Virus record (IMG/VR): IMGVR_UViG_2711768066_000004
Span: 1-24,518 of that record
Strand: one strand, 5' to 3'
Origin: a virus
Taxonomy: Duplodnaviria; Heunggongvirae; Uroviricota; Caudoviricetes
Length of the DNA stretch: 24,518 bases
In this document: in pieces, positions 1 through 24,518 of the stretch
Numbering within the stretch: the stretch's first letter is position 1
Layout of the letters: each line of letters starts with the position of its first letter
Position numbers and translations under genes: made by a program
Notes under the pieces: generated by a model
What the model was told of the DNA's origin: nothing
Databases searched by the model: none
Seen by the model: only the letters and a program-made list of their open reading frames with translations

Positions 1-241
1 AAATCGTGTTGAGGCCAACGCCCATAATGCGGGCGGTTGCCCGGCATCCGACGCCATTCATGGCCATATCAATGATTTTCTGGTGCGTACCGGGTTGAGA
101 AGCGGTGTAAGTGAACTGCAGTTGCCATGTTTTACGGCAGTGAGAGCAGAGATAGCGCTGATGTCCGGCAGTGCTTTTGCCGTTACGCACCACCCCGTCA
201 GTAGCTGAACAGGAGGGACAGCTGATAGAAACAGAAGCCAC
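1..241 (-). CDS. insA: IS1 InsA transposase/repressor, N-terminal 80 codons (partial, runs off the window); GTG start
   Basis: Minus-strand translation [80 protein letters not shown] matches IS1 InsA as recalled. The 70-aa ORF 58..270 in the six-frame track is an alternative frame of the same DNA. Confidence 0.85.
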
Positions 242-296
242 TGGAGCACCTCAAAAACACCATCATACACTAAATCAGTAAGTTGGCAGCATCACC
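1..296 (-). mobile_element. IS1: IS1 insertion sequence, partial copy (left terminal ~296 bp of the 768-bp element; remainder lies outside the window), inverted relative to the right-hand copy
   Basis: Positions 274..296 are the reverse complement of the IS1 terminal inverted repeat GGTGATGCTGCCAACTTACTGAT. Bases 2..296 are the exact reverse complement of 24224..24518. The minus strand encodes the InsA N-terminus. Confidence 0.93.
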
Positions 297-751: not shown

Positions 752-1087
752 TCATCGATAGAAAAACTTTACGGCCCACTCGTAAACCGCTTTGTAAATC
801 GGTTCATGGTAAATACTATCGATACTATTCAGATGTGCGATCATCGCCTCCACAGTTGTAGTGGTTGTTTCTAATATTTCGATTATTGCAGGGCGGTCAT
901 CATCTTCATCGAAGTATTCGAACAGCAGTACAGGTTTACCATGCCATTCAGCATCTGAGACTCTAAGGTTACAACTACCGCTCAACTCAAAGTGAATTTT
1001 GTAATTACCTTCTACAGAATGGCCTACGGGGAAAAAGCATAGGGTGTCATCTTTGTTTAAAAGCCATTCCCATTCATAACTATTCAT
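752..1087 (-). CDS. Hypothetical small acidic protein (111 aa from the SD-supported start; the ORF extends to 1105)
   Basis: ORF 752..1105; the internal ATG at 1085..1087 is preceded by AGGAG at 7-nt spacing, whereas the first ATG has no SD. Low-GC codon usage unlike the adjacent phage genes. Rich in D/E (EYFDEDDDRPAIIEILETTTTT). Confidence 0.55.
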   Translation of the reverse strand: MNSYEWEWLLNKDDTLCFFPVGHSVEGNYKIHFELSGSCNLRVSDAEWHGKPVLLFEYFDEDDDRPAIIEILETTTTTVEAMIAHLNSIDSIYHEPIYKAVYEWAVKFFYR

Positions 1088-1237
1088 TTGTGAACTCCTG
1101 TTCATTGAGTTTCAACAACTATCAACTACATCCAGCGAAGCATAAAAGATCGTTTATGGCAAAACCGGAGTGGAGTGCGATTCGATTCTGAGAAGGATGC
1201 CACGTATCGCACGCGAACCATCCAAGAGGATTATGCA

Positions 1238-1713: not shown

Positions 1714-2208
1714 ATGGCTGGAACGGCGGGGCGTTCCGGGCGTCGCCCCAAGCCAACGGCGCGCAAGGCGCTGGCCGGAAACCCCGGCAAGCGAGCCCTG
1801 AATAAAGATGAACCTGTTTTTACGCCCATCAAAGGTGTTGAGCCACCGGAGTGGTTCGCTGAAGAAGATCTCCCTCTCGCCACGATCATGTGGCAACTGA
1901 CAACCAAAGAACTCTGCGGTCAGGGCCTGCTGTGCGTGACTGACCTCGCGGTGCTTGAGCGGTGGTGTGTGGCCTATGAGTTCTGGCGACGTGCCGTGAA
2001 AAATATTGCCAGACAGGGCAACACCATCACCGGCGCAATGGGCGGTATGGTCAAAAATCCTGAGCTGACCGCCAAAAAAGAACAGGAGTCCGAGATGAGC
2101 AGTACGGGGGCAATGCTCGGACTCGACCCCAGCAGCCGCCAGCGTCTGATTGGCCTGGCGGGGCAGAAGAAAGCCACTAACCCGTTTCTGAAAATTATCG
2201 AATCATGA
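1714..2208 (+). CDS. Terminase small subunit (P27 family)
   Basis: Sequence [34 protein letters not shown] resembles P27-family small terminases. AGGAG SD 8 nt upstream of the ATG at 1714 (ORF track start 1705). Stop overlaps the terL start (ATGA). Confidence 0.75.
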
Positions 2209-3938
2209 GCCGGAAATCTTACCCCAACGTAAATGCTGCCAATCAGTATGCCCGGGATGTCGTTCGCGGAAAGATTGTGGCCTGCCAGTTTGTGATTCAG
2301 GCCTGCCAGCGCCATCTTGATGACCTGATGGCGGAAAAAAGTAAGTCGTTTCGTTACCGCTTCGACAAGGACCTGGCTGAACGGGCCGCCAAATTTATTC
2401 AGCTGTTGCCGCATACCAAGGGTGAGTGGGCATTCAAACGGATGCCCATCACGCTGGAGCCGTGGCAGCTCTTTGTGATCTGCTGTGCGTTTGGCTGGGT
2501 CAATAAAGGTACCCGGCTGCGCCGCTTCCGGGAGGTGTATACCGAAATCCCCCGTAAGAACGGCAAATCGGCAATCTCTGCCGGTGTCGCCCTGTATTGT
2601 TTTGCCTGTGATAACGAGTTTGGCGCGGAAGTGTATTCCGGTGCCACGACAGAGAAACAGGCGTGGGAAGTCTTTCGCCCGGCGCGACTGATGTGTAAAC
2701 GCACACCCATGCTGACGGAAGCGTTCGGGATTGAGGTTAACGCCTCAAACATGAACCGTCCGGAGGATGGCGCGCGGTTTGAGCCGCTGATCGGTAACCC
2801 CGGTGATGGTTCATCACCCCACTGTGCGGTGGTGGATGAATATCACGAGCATGCCACCGATGCACTTTACACCACGATGCTTACCGGGATGGGGGCGCGA
2901 CGTCAGCCACTGATGTGGGCCATCACCACCGCCGGGTACAACATTGAGGGGCCGTGCTACGACAAGCGGCGGGAAGTTCTCGAGATGCTCAACGGTTCGG
3001 TACCCAACGATGAACTGTTCGGGATCATCTATACCGTTGACGAAGGCGATGACTGGACCGACCCGCAGGTGCTGGAAAAAGCCAATCCAAATATTGGCGT
3101 GTCGGTTTATCGCGAATTTTTGTTAAGTCAGCAGCAGCGTGCGAAAAATAACGCCCGTCTGGCAAACGTCTTTAAAACAAAACACCTCAATATCTGGGTG
3201 TCGGCGCGTTCGGCGTATTTCAACCTGGTGAGCTGGCAGAGCTGCGAGGATAAATCACTGACCCTTGAGCAGTTCGAGGGGCAGCCGTGCATTCTGGCCT
3301 TTGACCTGGCGCGTAAGCTGGATATGAACAGCATGGCGCGACTTTATACCCGCGAGATTGACGGTAAAACGCATTACTACAGTGTGGCCCCGCGTTTCTG
3401 GGTACCGTATGACACGGTGTACAGCGTCGAGAAAAATGAAGATCGACGGACAGCCGAACGCTTTCAGAAATGGGTGGAAATGGGCGTTCTGACCGTTACC
3501 GATGGTGCGGAAGTGGATTATCGCTACATCCTCGAGGAGGCCAAAGCGGCGAACAAAATCAGCCCGGTCAGTGAGTCACCCATCGACCCCTTCGGGGCGA
3601 CCGGGTTGTCACATGACCTTGCTGATGAAGACCTGAATCCCGTCACTATCGTCCAGAACTTCACCAATATGTCCGACCCGATGAAAGAGCTGGAAGCGGC
3701 GATTGAATCGGGACGTTTTCATCATGACGGCAATCCCATCATGACCTGGTGTATCGGCAACGTGGTCGGCAAAACCATTCCGGGTAACGATGATGTGGTG
3801 AAGCCCGTCAAAGAGCAGGCGGAAAACAAAATCGATGGTGCAGTTGCGCTGATTATGGCGGTTGGCAGAGCCATGCTGTACGAGAAAGAAGACACGCTGT
3901 CTGACCACATTGAGTCCTATGGGATCCGCTCGCTTTAA
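2205..3938 (+). CDS. Terminase large subunit
   Basis: 577 aa with a Walker A-like NGKS motif and a C-terminal nuclease-like region; position directly after terS and before portal. Confidence 0.88.
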
Positions 3939-3949
3939 CTGAGGTAATT

Positions 3950-4132
3950 ATGATCATGCTGATTCTCGCGCCTCTGGTGGGCGTGCTGGGGGCGCTTTTG
4001 CTGGCGTATGGTGCCTGGCTGATTTATCCCCCGGCGGGGTTTGTTGTTGCCGGGGCGTTGTGCCTGTTCTGGTCGTGGCTGGTGGCGCGATATCTCGACC
4101 GTACACAGTCGTCTGCCGGCGGAGGTAAATAG
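3950..4132 (+). CDS. Small hydrophobic protein (two predicted TM helices)
   Basis: 60 aa, [49 protein letters not shown]; GAGG SD upstream; wedged between terL and portal. Confidence 0.45.
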
Positions 4133-5373
4133 TGTTCTTTTCGGGATTATTTCAACGAAAAAGTGACGCACCGGTGACCACGCCAGCAGAGCTGGCGGAT
4201 GCTATCGGGTTGTCCTACGACACCTATACCGGAAAGCAGATCAGCAGCCAGCGGGCCATGCGACTGACGGCGGTTTTTTCCTGTGTCAGGGTGCTGGCGG
4301 AGTCGGTCGGGATGTTGCCCTGCAACCTGTATCACCTGAACGGCAGCCTGAAGCAGAGAGCCACTGGCGAACGTCTGCATAAGCTGATCTCCACGCATCC
4401 CAATGGCTATATGACGCCGCAGGAGTTCTGGGAGCTGGTGGTCACCTGTCTGTGCCTGCGGGGAAACTTTTACGCCTACAAAGTGAAAGCATTTGGCGAA
4501 GTGGCTGAACTGCTGCCCGTCGATCCCGGCTGTGTGGTACCGAAGCTTAACAGTAGCTGGGAGCCGGTCTATCAGGTCACATTCCCGGATGGCTCCACGG
4601 ATGTACTGAGCCAGGAGGATATCTGGCATGTGCGCACGCTGACGCTGGACGGACTGGTGGGGCTGAATCCCATCGCCTATGCCCGCGAGGCAATATCGCT
4701 GGCGGCAGCGACCGAAGAGCACGGGGCCAGACTGTTCAGCAATGGCGCGGTGACGTCGGGTGTGTTGCGTACAGAGCAGACGCTGTCAGATCAGGCTTAT
4801 GAGCGCCTGAAGAAAGATTTTGAGGAGCGTCACACCGGGCTTGGCAATGCTCACCGCCCGATGATCCTTGAGATGGGGCTGGACTGGAAGTCGATGGCGC
4901 TGAACGCCGAGGACAGCCAGTTCCTGGAAACCCGCAGGTTTCAGCTTGAAGAAATCTGTCGTCTGTTCCGGGTGCCGTTGCACATGGTGCAGAACACCGA
5001 TCGCGCCACCTTCAACAATATCGAAGAGCTGGGGCTGGGATTTATCAACTATTCACTGGTGCCGTATCTGACCCGCATCGAACAGCGGATCAACACCGGA
5101 CTGGTACGAAAAAGTAAGCAGGGCGTTTATTACGCCAAATTTAACGCCGGGGCGTTACTGCGCGGGGATATGAAGTCCCGTTTTGAAGCCTACGCCACCG
5201 GGATCAACTGGGGAATTTACTCTCCCAATGACTGCCGCGACCTGGAAGATATGAATCCGCGTCCCGGTGGTGATGTCTATCTCACACCGATGAACATGAC
5301 CACGAAACCCTCCGATGGCAGTAAAGCCGGTAAGCAGAAGGATAACGCCAATGCAGACGAAACAACGTCTTGA
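4132..5373 (+). CDS. Portal protein (HK97 family)
   Basis: 413 aa; position after terminase; sequence features typical of HK97-family portals. Probable GTG start at 4132 preceded by GGAGGT. Confidence 0.85.
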   Translation: MFFSGLFQRKSDAPVTTPAELADAIGLSYDTYTGKQISSQRAMRLTAVFSCVRVLAESVGMLPCNLYHLNGSLKQRATGERLHKLISTHPNGYMTPQEFWELVVTCLCLRGNFYAYKVKAFGEVAELLPVDPGCVVPKLNSSWEPVYQVTFPDGSTDVLSQEDIWHVRTLTLDGLVGLNPIAYAREAISLAAATEEHGARLFSNGAVTSGVLRTEQTLSDQAYERLKKDFEERHTGLGNAHRPMILEMGLDWKSMALNAEDSQFLETRRFQLEEICRLFRVPLHMVQNTDRATFNNIEELGLGFINYSLVPYLTRIEQRINTGLVRKSKQGVYYAKFNAGALLRGDMKSRFEAYATGINWGIYSPNDCRDLEDMNPRPGGDVYLTPMNMTTKPSDGSKAGKQKDNANADETTS

Positions 5374-13532: not shown

Positions 13533-13979
13533 TTACTGTGCGAACACGCAATTTCGGCCTGATGGGGAGCCGACAATTCTGGACATTTTTTCGCAAATAA
13601 CAGTTACCTGTTCTCCTTTTTTAAGAGCAGCAGCTGTTGATTTTTCAGAGTCTTGCATCTCCATTCTTGCTGGCATGAATTCATTTTCAGTTCTGAATTT
13701 AATAATTATAGAGTCAGTAAAGTCCTTATCAATGGATTGTACGATACCTCTAACGGCGATTAATTTACCTTTTAACTGTTCATCGGTAGCGACTTCATTT
13801 TCTTCATACTCTTTAAACAGCTGTCGAGCAGTAGTGTTGTAGATTTCTTTTTGCGGTGCCGCAGCTTCCGTATCGGATGAGTATGAAGAATTAGAGCCTT
13901 TATCGTTATTGCCTGCAAAATATCCAATAATCACCAACCCGATGAAAATATATAAAATCCATTTTAATAATTTCTTCAT
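13533..13979 (-). CDS. Moron: membrane-anchored protein with N-terminal TM/signal-anchor, Ser-rich linker and a C-terminal domain that looks OB-fold-like (tRNA_anti-like type, recalled by eye)
   Basis: 148 aa, MKKLLKWILYIFIGLVIIGYFAG...; very low GC; opposite strand to all flanking phage genes; AAGGTG SD 6 nt upstream of the ATG; own AT-rich upstream region and downstream hairpin. Confidence 0.75.
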   Translation of the reverse strand: MKKLLKWILYIFIGLVIIGYFAGNNDKGSNSSYSSDTEAAAPQKEIYNTTARQLFKEYEENEVATDEQLKGKLIAVRGIVQSIDKDFTDSIIIKFRTENEFMPARMEMQDSEKSTAAALKKGEQVTVICEKMSRIVGSPSGRNCVFAQ

Positions 13980-21460: not shown

Positions 21461-23410
21461 TTAATCGTGTTTTGGCCATACTTTCAATGCAATTTCCCCC
21501 AACTTTTTACCCCGCTCCAGGATTTCATCCTCATCCCATTTATCCTTAACTATAAGTGGAATGTTCAGTCGTAGATTGGTGTGGACGATGAGAGCATCAC
21601 GTTTTTTCAGAAATACAGCATTCTGAACAGAACGGTTTACGCTAAGGTTAAGCAAAGTTAGATTTCCCAACGTAGCTATCGCTTGTTGCCGTTTCCTTAC
21701 CAGTAGCTGTTCAGGGGTAAGATCGGTTCCAGACAGAACAATTTGGTTCAATACCGTAGCATCTGAATTTGTCACCATATGACCATTTTCGAGAGGCCAA
21801 CAGGAATACCAACTTTGAGGCATAAGATGATCGATATCGAGGTTAGAAAGATTTGGAACATCAGGCTTCTCTGTCTTCACTTGGCGACAAAGTTCTCTTT
21901 CAAGTTCCGTTAACATTGAGCGCATTTTCGGTGCGTCGAGCCTGCCAGGATAAAGTGGAGCATTGATGCAAGCGTTGAGAAATTCTGAGTCCCCAGGCCA
22001 ACGTGAGGCTTCGCCATTTAAGCTATTGAGGATATTACGTAACTCAACACTGGAAATTTCCGTTTTAGACAAGTGCCGCAATACATTCATAAATACATTG
22101 TTGTAATTCTTTGGCGTCAGGCCACATACGGCTCTTCGTACTACGTAGGAGACAAGATCATTATACATGGCTGCTTTCTCATCATCGGCGATGTTAGCTA
22201 TCGAAATGAACAAAGCAAGCGGATAAAGTGTCGTCACATCATAGGCTGCGATGCGATGTCCAAAGTGTGAGATGGGGGTTGTGCCAAAACCACCAACCAA
22301 TTCTTTATATTGTGATGCATATTGTTTGAGGCGCTTTACTTGCAGATCTGCTCGTTGTGAAGGCAAGTCCTTACTTACATAATCACGATACTCATTGTAA
22401 AGACGAGACAGATCGATTTCACGTTGCCTTTCTGATTGCAATGTCGCATGCACTAGCCACTCCATGCGTGGTTTATTAATACGACCACGACGTTGTCTTT
22501 CTGACCAGTACGTATCTTCAAAGATCTTCCACTCATTCTCATATAATTCAACAGCATTAATATTTTCATGTTCAGCGCACATAAAAATATAATTGCGAAT
22601 AAGATCTGTGGCATGAAGTTCCGCACCTCTGCCATTTAATGTTTCAAAAATTATTTGAGCGTCATCTTCAGCCTCGAGAAATATGCTTACTAGTTTCAGA
22701 TCCGTCAAGACAGCCTCAATTAATGCTACAGCATTTTCTCGTGGTGAGTGATTTTCTATTTTAATCCACTTTATAAAGGCTTCAGTAAAAAAACATAATG
22801 CTTCTAGTGATGGCGGGTGATTAAAATGCTTACGCAACGTACCATGCTGCGTGAAACTATCAGAGAATACATTCCGGATATCGTCAATATTTTCAACATT
22901 AAAACTTTGAATAAAATGAGTTTGATCCCGAAAAGTTGGCCACAGTTTGAAGCGCTCTACTTCTTTATTTCGCATTGTGTCTTCGTTTGAGTTTTTCAGG
23001 CAAGACGAAATGAGAGGCCCTAAGTTGGAAAGATCTGTCGCACGTAATGCTAATCGGATGGATGCCAGAACATATTGAAGAGTGGTCAATCGTTGCTGAC
23101 CATCAATAATATGTATGGAATCTACACCTAATAATCCTTTTTTTGGTTGAGGTTCCAGTACCACTGCACCAAGGAAATGGGGAGTTGGTTTTGTACCCGA
23201 GAGCCGGGATTGTGCTTTCTCTAGGATATCCTCCAGTAGAGCTGACCATTGGTTTCGCTGAGTCCATACATAGGCACGTTGATAGAATGGAACGCAGTAT
23301 TGTCGGCGGTCTTGAAAAAGTTGTTGGACAGTTAGCGTCTCGGATTTCATGGTATACCTGTAAGCGACATTGTACAAAAGTGAGGAGTTAATCTGATTTA
23401 GAACAATCAT
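21461..23410 (-). CDS. DUF262/DUF1524 fusion protein, GmrSD-family type IV (modification-dependent) restriction endonuclease-like
   Basis: N-terminal DUF262 hallmarks (VPFYQRAYVWTQRNQW and IIDGQQRLTTLQ); C-terminal DUF1524/His-Me-finger hallmarks (LDIDHLMPQSW, GNLTLLNLSVNRSVQN). Low GC. Likely true start is Met21 at 23350 (AGG 6 nt upstream and a TACAAT -10-like hexamer further up) rather than 23410. Confidence 0.8.
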   Translation of the reverse strand: MIVLNQINSSLLYNVAYRYTMKSETLTVQQLFQDRRQYCVPFYQRAYVWTQRNQWSALLEDILEKAQSRLSGTKPTPHFLGAVVLEPQPKKGLLGVDSIHIIDGQQRLTTLQYVLASIRLALRATDLSNLGPLISSCLKNSNEDTMRNKEVERFKLWPTFRDQTHFIQSFNVENIDDIRNVFSDSFTQHGTLRKHFNHPPSLEALCFFTEAFIKWIKIENHSPRENAVALIEAVLTDLKLVSIFLEAEDDAQIIFETLNGRGAELHATDLIRNYIFMCAEHENINAVELYENEWKIFEDTYWSERQRRGRINKPRMEWLVHATLQSERQREIDLSRLYNEYRDYVSKDLPSQRADLQVKRLKQYASQYKELVGGFGTTPISHFGHRIAAYDVTTLYPLALFISIANIADDEKAAMYNDLVSYVVRRAVCGLTPKNYNNVFMNVLRHLSKTEISSVELRNILNSLNGEASRWPGDSEFLNACINAPLYPGRLDAPKMRSMLTELERELCRQVKTEKPDVPNLSNLDIDHLMPQSWYSCWPLENGHMVTNSDATVLNQIVLSGTDLTPEQLLVRKRQQAIATLGNLTLLNLSVNRSVQNAVFLKKRDALIVHTNLRLNIPLIVKDKWDEDEILERGKKLGEIALKVWPKHD

Positions 23411-24223: not shown

Positions 24224-24518
24224 GGTGATGCTGCCAACTTACTGATTTAGTGTATGATGGTGTTTTTGAGGTGCTCCAGTGGCTTCTGTTTCTATCAGCT
24301 GTCCCTCCTGTTCAGCTACTGACGGGGTGGTGCGTAACGGCAAAAGCACTGCCGGACATCAGCGCTATCTCTGCTCTCACTGCCGTAAAACATGGCAACT
24401 GCAGTTCACTTACACCGCTTCTCAACCCGGTACGCACCAGAAAATCATTGATATGGCCATGAATGGCGTCGGATGCCGGGCAACCGCCCGCATTATGGGC
24501 GTTGGCCTCAACACGATT
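24224..24518 (+). mobile_element. IS1: IS1 insertion sequence, partial copy (left terminal 295 bp; remainder outside the window)
   Basis: Begins with the IS1 terminal inverted repeat GGTGATGCTGCCAACTTACTGAT at 24224; exact inverted duplicate of the left-edge copy. Confidence 0.93.
24279..24518 (+). CDS. insA: IS1 InsA, N-terminal 80 codons (partial, runs off the window); GTG start
   Basis: Same translation as the left-edge copy; the track ORF 24250..24462 is an overlapping alternative frame. Confidence 0.85.

Follow-up and report, generated by a model that had tools for sequence, protein, structure and literature searches.

A small acidic prophage gene in a variable slot between lysis and packaging genes, and its unlikely partnership with a neighboring nuclease

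Close to the left end of a prophage DNA of 24,518 nucleotides, referred to here as the window (the whole stretch analyzed; IMG/VR record IMGVR_UViG_2711768066_000004), a small gene for a strongly acidic protein lies directly upstream of a gene that has been cut by IS1. The locus raises the question of what the acidic protein, the product of gene A, is for. Does it belong to the truncated neighbor, gene B, as an antitoxin or immunity protein belongs to its toxin; does it serve the adjacent packaging genes; or is it an independent passenger of the prophage? The original prediction, made from the letters of the window, regarded A and B as a two-gene cassette and named antitoxins, immunity proteins and DNA-mimic anti-restriction proteins as precedents for A. 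The reading preferred here, to which we give a probability of roughly 55%, is that A is an autonomous single-gene moron carried in a variable slot of the prophage, with the role proposed below. It builds on established properties of the gene: its autonomy, its position, the purifying selection acting on it, its conserved acidity and the absence of a conserved partner.

Gene A and the truncated gene B

The reading frame of gene A lies on the minus strand and ends with a TGA stop at 754-752. It can be opened by an ATG at 1105, giving a protein of 117 aa, or by an ATG at 1087, giving 111 aa. Gene A is assigned to 752-1087 (-), with a 111 aa product, because i) the RefSeq form of the protein (WP_001089762.1) is 111 aa long; ii) positions 1-111 of the 111-position PHROG 14397 profile correspond to residues 7-117 of the longer ORF (E 6.8e-79); iii) the ATG at 1105 is not conserved among the homologues; and iv) an AGGAG, read from the sequence as the Shine-Dalgarno element (1095-1099, -), stands 7 nt 5' of the ATG at 1087. 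A GAGG or GGAG element occupies the equivalent position when the upstream regions of loci homologous to A are aligned. An AGGAG-supported start had been noted; the AGGAG falls within the 117 aa form (1099-1095) and precedes the ATG at 1087.

The protein contains 20 acidic (D+E) and 8 basic (K+R) residues, with a net charge of -12 and a pI of 4.56, and residues 60-64 form a DEDDD run. These values and the PHROG 14397 match bear out the small acidic protein that had been described. The protein is classed as cytoplasmic; it has no membrane segment and no enzyme-like conserved constellation of Cys, His and Ser. The GC content of the gene is 0.40 compared to ~0.56-0.58 in the HNH and terminase genes, and its orientation is that of the IS1-truncated ORF, pointing away from the late operon, again as originally described.

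Homologues of A fall into ~25 clusters of constant length (105-114 aa) and extend down to 36% identity. Pairwise dN/dS values are 0.05-0.13, which means purifying selection on the gene; between the window copy and the other copies, synonymous sites have reached saturation. The PHROG 14397 match, the constant length over this range of identity and the low dN/dS argue that A is a genuine conserved gene, far beyond a chance ORF. Acidity and base composition are conserved as well: in 11 of 11 orthologues tested the net charge is -10 to -14 and the pI 4.3-4.7, and in all 11 the GC content is 0.37-0.42 versus 0.56-0.58 in the HNH and terminase genes. Across 23 family members, residues L16, P20, S38, D45, D62 and W104 are invariant, at least 90% conservation is found at D13, Y17, G27, L35, G37, S44, E57, D64, I83, L86, H94, E103, A105 and F109, and no Cys is conserved.

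The family is small and confined to lambdoid prophages of Enterobacterales. It spans Enterobacter, Escherichia sp. ESNIH1, Hafnia, Pectobacterium and metagenomes and, through profile search, also Pantoea, Serratia and Citrobacter. An exhaustive profile search over 1.84 billion representatives gave 15 matches, and a further word-index search for relatives reached Pantoea, Serratia and Citrobacter and returned no named relative. The gene is absent from the 50,697 sequenced phages of INPHARED, as searched by tblastn and megablast.

Scans of the A protein against Pfam, NCBIfam and PADLOC-DB 2.0 gave no match. When the 23 family members were compared with these databases at E values up to 10, only scattered sub-threshold matches appeared, to GMC_oxred_C and, in 4 members at E 0.056 or weaker, to P22_AR_C. 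Sequence and profile searches of the PDB returned just one marginal match, to CPR-C4 (E 0.17, improving to 0.022). Membership of A among the CPR-C4 or vasohibin-like cysteine proteases was rejected, given the lack of a conserved Cys and an E value of merely 0.022. Two other candidates were also set aside: P0069 (215 aa), considered as a domain fusion with A, reads as an error-ridden copy of A, and GiPD474, a Gifsy prophage defense protein, is an unrelated ATPase. Structure prediction, proposed earlier as a check, was run, but the model has a pLDDT of 53 and is unreliable; fold searches with it gave nothing consistent and no fold could be assigned. The statement that A has no recognizable family holds for Pfam, NCBIfam, PADLOC and the PDB, the sole match being PHROG 14397, of unknown function; A is neither a structural nor a lysis protein. 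As a hypothetical, uncharacterized family it already has entries in PHROG (14397) and RefSeq (WP_001089762), and literature searches found no paper that names it by accession or PHROG id.

The minus-strand ORF 292-708, on the same strand as A and 3' of it, is cut by IS1 and holds the remnant of gene B (297-651, -), which comprises codons 1-118 of a 189 aa PD-(D/E)xK nuclease (WP_000613840 family, PHROG 12494). The truncating IS1 end occupies 1-296 (-), its terminal inverted repeat at 274-296 being an exact IS1 match, and an IS1 transposase is annotated at the equivalent place in the near-identical E. coli ET474 record. B has the restriction-endonuclease-like alpha-beta-beta-beta-alpha-beta core with a D...(D/E)xK motif, and D64 (start of beta2), E85 and K87 (beta3) and Q123 are invariant in its family. 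It is a small solitary PD-(D/E)xK nuclease, with no methyltransferase found nearby; a comparison of the family with PADLOC-DB 2.0 gave scattered single-member matches only, at E 0.004-0.045, including REase_II. The window copy keeps the D/ExK residues and lacks the last 71 residues including strand beta4, and is therefore presumably inactive. Gene A is intact while B is broken, in a prophage that is degraded and flanked by IS1.

Two IS1 copies with inward-facing, identical terminal repeats, at 274-296 (-) and 24224-24246 (+), bracket the 23.9-kb late region of the prophage in a composite-transposon-like arrangement. In ET474 the left IS1 also removed the prophage Q, lysis and replication genes, leaving that prophage defective.

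Distribution of A and B

Gene A is present in 79 and gene B in 80 of 5426 complete E. coli genomes, with all copies at least 95% identical and nearly always adjacent. These copies represent a single recent lineage, and their co-inheritance within E. coli is therefore uninformative on function. A sample of 112 loci from GTDB genomes, IMG/VR and assemblies, each searched by tblastn for both A and B, gives a different picture from that of a pair. The two genes occur together solely as the E. coli allele pair, in which identity is 97% or more for A and 95% or more for B and the spacing is fixed. All 27 loci with a diverged A (50-87% identity) are without B, and all ~30 loci with a diverged B (49-70% identity) are without A. 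Homologues of A at 43-76% identity, from Enterobacter, Escherichia sp., Hafnia, Pectobacterium, Serratia, Citrobacter and Pantoea, are all without B as well. A conserved convergent partner downstream of A was looked for and none was found, the contexts of A homologues sharing no 3' neighbor.

The DNA homology between the E. coli locus and the A-only loci covers just A and ~86 nt upstream of its ATG and extends to the A stop, and the homology to the B-only loci begins exactly at the B ATG. Breakpoints of this kind indicate that A and B are two separate modules. A stretch of ~100 nt containing a promoter-like site separates the A stop from the conserved MIQ start of B, and the two ORFs neither overlap nor are coupled; in one RefSeq record B is given an earlier start, 12 nt from A, but this start is not conserved. 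In loci L080 and L081 the same HK97-like prophage carries an E. coli-type B (95%) beside a substituted A segment: the DNA from the HNH start to the last 25 nt of A has been exchanged for ~640 nt that carry an unrelated ORF on the other strand. Apart from these two loci, many IMG/VR prophages, as well as Klebsiella, Enterobacter and Yersinia-type prophages, carry an intact B alone beside terS. An unrelated ORF of 72-75 aa precedes B in Enterobacter prophages; in Klebsiella and many IMG/VR prophages there is none. Decay of B with A persisting has occurred through the IS1 insertion of the window, as stubs of 38 codons (L045-47) and through a frameshift (L030).

The ORF found 5' of B in two of the loci, at 4683-4910 (+) in L007 and 4692-4910 (+) in L006, starts MGNVKIYAGLVNGDLMPIIEDRTSEE and has no family match.

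The two-gene cassette of the original prediction is thus not upheld: co-occurrence is confined to one near-clonal E. coli lineage, and the breakpoints separate the modules. The check suggested with it, whether homologues of the two ORFs ever occur together, goes against a pair everywhere outside that lineage. Some lineage-specific functional coupling of A and B within E. coli remains conceivable, and the mutual exclusivity of the two outside E. coli could reflect competition for one slot, unrelated to function.

The slot between lysis and packaging genes

In the window, A is divergent from the HNH endonuclease gene (1238-1588, +), the first packaging gene, identified from its ORF and from the RefSeq annotation of identical loci. 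HNH is followed by a P27-family terS (1714-2208) and terL (2205-3938), after which come the genes for portal, HK97-type protease and capsid and a module for a contractile tail. In all contexts, A is the closest neighbor of the first packaging gene and is transcribed divergently from it. Relative to the lysis cassette it lies either convergent or downstream, which makes it antisense to the late operon; in 12 of 13 distinct contexts it is monocistronic. The packaging modules adjoining it belong to at least four unrelated types: HNH with P27 terS; Terminase_2; metallopeptidase with DUF2280 terS; and Sf6-like. At prophage remnants without packaging genes (L022 and L113/L114) A survives, and the Pantoea remnant of L113/L114 indicates that it can outlast the decay of the phage. 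In that Pantoea remnant (4001-5224) a distant A homologue lies at the edge, beside a colicin/pyocin immunity-family gene and a TolA-like ORF.

When alone, B is found 36-42 nt from, and divergent to, a terS that starts MAKPDW. This is the exact position of A, so that A and B alternate in a single slot. Among 75 IMG/VR prophages with an L003-type terS, 58 carry a divergent ORF at this place; these ORFs form ~45 clusters, of which B is the commonest (6 loci). Other cargo in this survey includes a DUF4145/HEPN protein and a YfbU-domain protein, most of the remainder being without a family. Lamassu LmuA/LmuB genes stand beside B, in the lysis-terminase interval, in L102 and L103 (1823-4723, -, in L103), and the pair is complete (LmuA/Cap4-nuclease, E 2e-148; LmuB, E 5e-237). 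The lysis-terminase slot is a hypervariable accessory-gene hotspot with partly defense-type content. Gene A has two marks of a moron here: close relatives carry another insert or none at the site (~45 clusters in the 75 prophages; the L080 swap), and its base composition is unlike that of its flanks (GC 0.37-0.42 versus 0.56-0.58).

A trace of how A came to its present place is preserved between A and HNH. Alignment of the upstream regions revealed a fossil of the 5' end of a MAKPDW-type small terminase gene, MAKPEWSAIRF* (12 codons; 1156-1191, +). The conserved block 5' of A, CCCAGTCCGGTTTTGCCAT, is the reverse complement of the start of a neighbor gene and its ribosome-binding site, the start being ATG GCA AAA CCG GAC TGG G, which encodes MAKPDW... 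In the A-only loci an intact terS (MAKPDWEAIE..., MAKPDWGALQ...) starts at the position of the fossil, ~67 nt divergent from A, and the terS-5' block accompanies A in all of them. The fossil implies that A reached a prophage of the HNH/P27-terS type through a recombination event inside the opening codons of a MAKPDW-type terS. The traveling unit, as judged from these alignments, consists of the first 7-10 codons of terS, the ~67-nt intergenic region and the ORF.

An unannotated Terminase_2-type terS-start fossil, MALTDKQEMFCHEYLIDLNATQAAI, also lies beside pid in phage P22 (nt 40744-40932; 2745-2933 (+) in locus L119). By analogy, this parallel suggests that cargo in the slot may generally move with the terS 5' end.

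Upstream of A, a candidate weak sigma-70 promoter can be placed at 1118-1146 (-), with TTTATG (1146-1141) and GATAGT (1123-1118) separated by 17 nt. A -35-like TTGnnA/TTTATA and a -10-like GAnAnT, 16-17 nt apart, recur in 13-14 of 15 A loci, with the -10-like element ending 28-32 nt before the A ATG, in loci that share merely ~65-70% DNA identity. Each of these sites matches just 6-8 of 12 consensus positions. In a generic promoter and terminator scan, the results were not above the shuffled expectation; the promoter pair of A was not called and no convincing terminator was seen. No Rfam family was found in positions 1-2300 of the window. The putative promoter of A is thus a lead, not a result.

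Other accessory genes occur elsewhere in these prophages. Beyond the tail-fiber and invertase remnants of the window, beside the right-hand IS1, the ORF 21461-23410 (-) is annotated in ET474 as a DUF262 domain-containing protein, which we take to belong to the GmrSD-like type IV restriction family; it is likely another defense cargo gene. An antisense ORF of 148 aa (13533-13979, -; a 108 aa hypothetical protein in ET474) is located between the tape-measure and DNA-circularization genes and may be another moron, inside the tail operon. The intact prophage of E. coli UMNK88 carries an antisense pair encoding caspase-family and TIR-domain proteins between the Q antiterminator and the holin (L001, 5761-7138, -), and this looks like a second defense-type cargo site.

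Possible functions and known systems

Comparison of the loci makes it highly probable that A is an autonomous moron and not a partner of B. As proposed here, it would be self-contained moron cargo with its own expression signals, placed between the lysis cassette and the first packaging gene; in this E. coli lineage it would have landed beside a second, independent cargo gene, B, which IS1 later destroyed. The protein would act as a soluble, non-enzymatic binding protein, since it lacks a catalytic constellation and a membrane segment and its net charge stays at -10 to -14 across the family. This description of A as a non-enzymatic acidic binder rests on the absence of motifs, and we hold it to be slightly less than an even bet. 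The acidic surface, including the invariant D45 and D62 and the near-invariant D13, E57, D64 and E103, might block or decoy a basic target, which would probably be a nucleic-acid-binding one. The protein would be made from its own weak promoter at times without late transcription, either in the lysogen or at an early stage of infection. Its most likely use would be in phage-phage or phage-host conflict, whether in exclusion or defense on behalf of the lysogen or in modulation of the host as by P22 Pid. Protection of the lysogen is possible; modulation of the host, drawn from the analogy to Pid, is improbable.

The assignment of A as the antitoxin or immunity protein of B, at least in the E. 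coli lineage where both are adjacent, draws on their arrangement: A is directly upstream of B, on the same strand and with equally low GC, B is a restriction-endonuclease-fold nuclease without a methyltransferase nearby, the two are nearly always together in complete E. coli genomes, and A persists where B decays (IS1, the L045-47 stubs, the L030 frameshift) like an orphan antitoxin. Type II toxin-antitoxin and nuclease-immunity pairs, however, have a conserved co-occurrence, a toxin gene that is never kept without its antitoxin and a tight operon, whereas A and B co-occur in one lineage at 95% identity or more, and no diverged homologue of either has the other, as the 27 A-only and ~30 B-only loci attest. 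B is tolerated without A beside terS in ~30 loci, including the E. coli-type B (95%) of L080/L081; Enterobacter B loci have a different, unrelated 75 aa upstream ORF or none; and the ~100 nt between the A stop and the MIQ of B are uncoupled, containing a promoter-like site, with homology breakpoints that split A from B. The antitoxin role that had been suggested therefore appears quite unlikely. A role of A in the packaging or late program of the phage, for instance as a regulator of the adjacent terminase or HNH genes, would fit its place in every locus, nearest to and divergent from the first packaging gene, whose first codons travel with it. But A adjoins packaging genes of four or more unrelated types, the slot is empty or filled with other cargo in most related prophages, A is retained at remnants without packaging genes (L022, L113/L114), and the antisense orientation uncouples it from late transcription; such a role is hardly to be expected.

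It is also conceivable that A works for the infecting phage as a counter-defense protein, an acidic mimic of DNA or another kind of decoy, comparable to Ocr, ArdA, Arn or the acidic anti-CRISPR proteins, which would inhibit a host restriction, CRISPR or other nucleic-acid-binding defense protein during infection or induction. The protein is small (111 aa), soluble and strongly acidic (net charge -12, pI 4.56; -10 to -14 in the family), with an invariant acidic motif, and the family is narrow and orphan-like and resides in a hypervariable accessory slot, as is typical for anti-defense genes. A pI of 4.5 is, however, common among small cytoplasmic proteins, and the model of A (pLDDT 53) is too poor for its charge geometry to be compared with that of DNA. 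In the cos-type prophage order, lysis-B-A-HNH-cos, A comes near the right end of the virion chromosome, and in lambda the right chromosome end enters the cell first; yet the terminases of most prophages with A are headful (pac-type) ones, which keeps the first-in argument from being general, and A is in the late region, antisense, rather than in an early or leading region. Neither A nor the 23 family members have a sequence match in Pfam, NCBIfam or the PDB to ArdA, Ocr, anti-restriction or Acr families, nor does A match a known defense family in PADLOC-DB 2.0, and no aca-like HTH gene lies near A in the contexts examined. A counter-defense decoy is, on balance, doubtful.

The autonomous single-gene moron is thus the preferred reading, and its consequences concern annotation and the slot. 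The label of antitoxin or immunity partner is tempting but wrong, and adjacency inside one clonal lineage is no evidence for a gene pair. By itself the finding on A is of modest importance; the slot is the more useful by-product. In lambdoid prophages of Enterobacterales, dozens of small cargo genes alternate at the position directly divergent from the first packaging gene. They appear to be moved together with the initial terminase codons, and this linker could serve to harvest defense and counter-defense candidates, A being one of them. Somewhat speculatively, A may found an uncharacterized family of single-protein effectors in phage-phage or phage-host conflict. Such an effector could be a new acidic decoy against host or prophage nuclease-type defense, possibly against B-like nucleases of competitors for the slot, or alternatively a minimal stand-alone exclusion factor of 111 aa. 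If A is such a family, the lysis-terminase slot marked by the terS-5' linker would be a minable hotspot of these genes in lambdoid prophages.

Several known systems resemble A in part. In the marginal profile match (E 0.022), residues 46-109 of A align with residues 84-146 of the CPR-C4 chain (PDB 7ob6), the match including EPIYKAVYEWAVKFFY versus DPIYKSVRELAMSYFH (PIYK.V.E.A..F motif) and an acidic run. The catalytic residues of CPR-C4, a vasohibin-like cysteine protease, are C61 and H93 (PMC9108980); A, in contrast, is without a catalytic cysteine. In the E. coli lineage the locus looks like a type II toxin-antitoxin or nuclease-immunity pair, a small acidic ORF directly 5' of a nuclease ORF, but it differs from such pairs in that co-occurrence is not conserved, the nuclease is often alone and the ORFs are uncoupled. 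With Ocr, ArdA, Arn, AcrIF2 and AcrIIA4, A shares its size (~90-170 aa), a strong negative charge and a narrow distribution on mobile elements; it differs in having no family match and in that its gene lies in the late region, not at an early or leading position.

Closer likenesses are found among morons. Lambda bor and other lysogeny-expressed morons (the Hendrix/Juhala concept) lie downstream of Rz, antisense to the late operon, and have atypical base composition and a patchy presence. Bor is an outer-membrane lipoprotein with a signal sequence. Like bor, A is an accessory gene antisense to the late operon, of atypical base composition and patchy among relatives; its product, however, is a soluble acidic protein without similarity to Bor (Pfam negative). 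The ORFan moron pid of P22 encodes 86 aa and belongs to the late region, where the lysis genes (with rha) lie on one side of it and the small terminase gene on the other (Cenens et al. 2013, PMC3573128; PMC8835761). Its transcription runs against that of the late operon and it is regulated on its own, and relatives of P22 carry other inserts or none at this place (PMC3573128, PMC8835761). The Pid protein derepresses the host dgo operon in the carrier state (PMC3573128). There is no sequence similarity between A and Pid (BLASTP, no alignment), but both genes are single small ORFans in equivalent position and orientation, beside a terS 5'-end fossil. A is an object of a familiar kind, to be grouped with P22 pid and lambda bor as a moron of the lysis-terminase interval.
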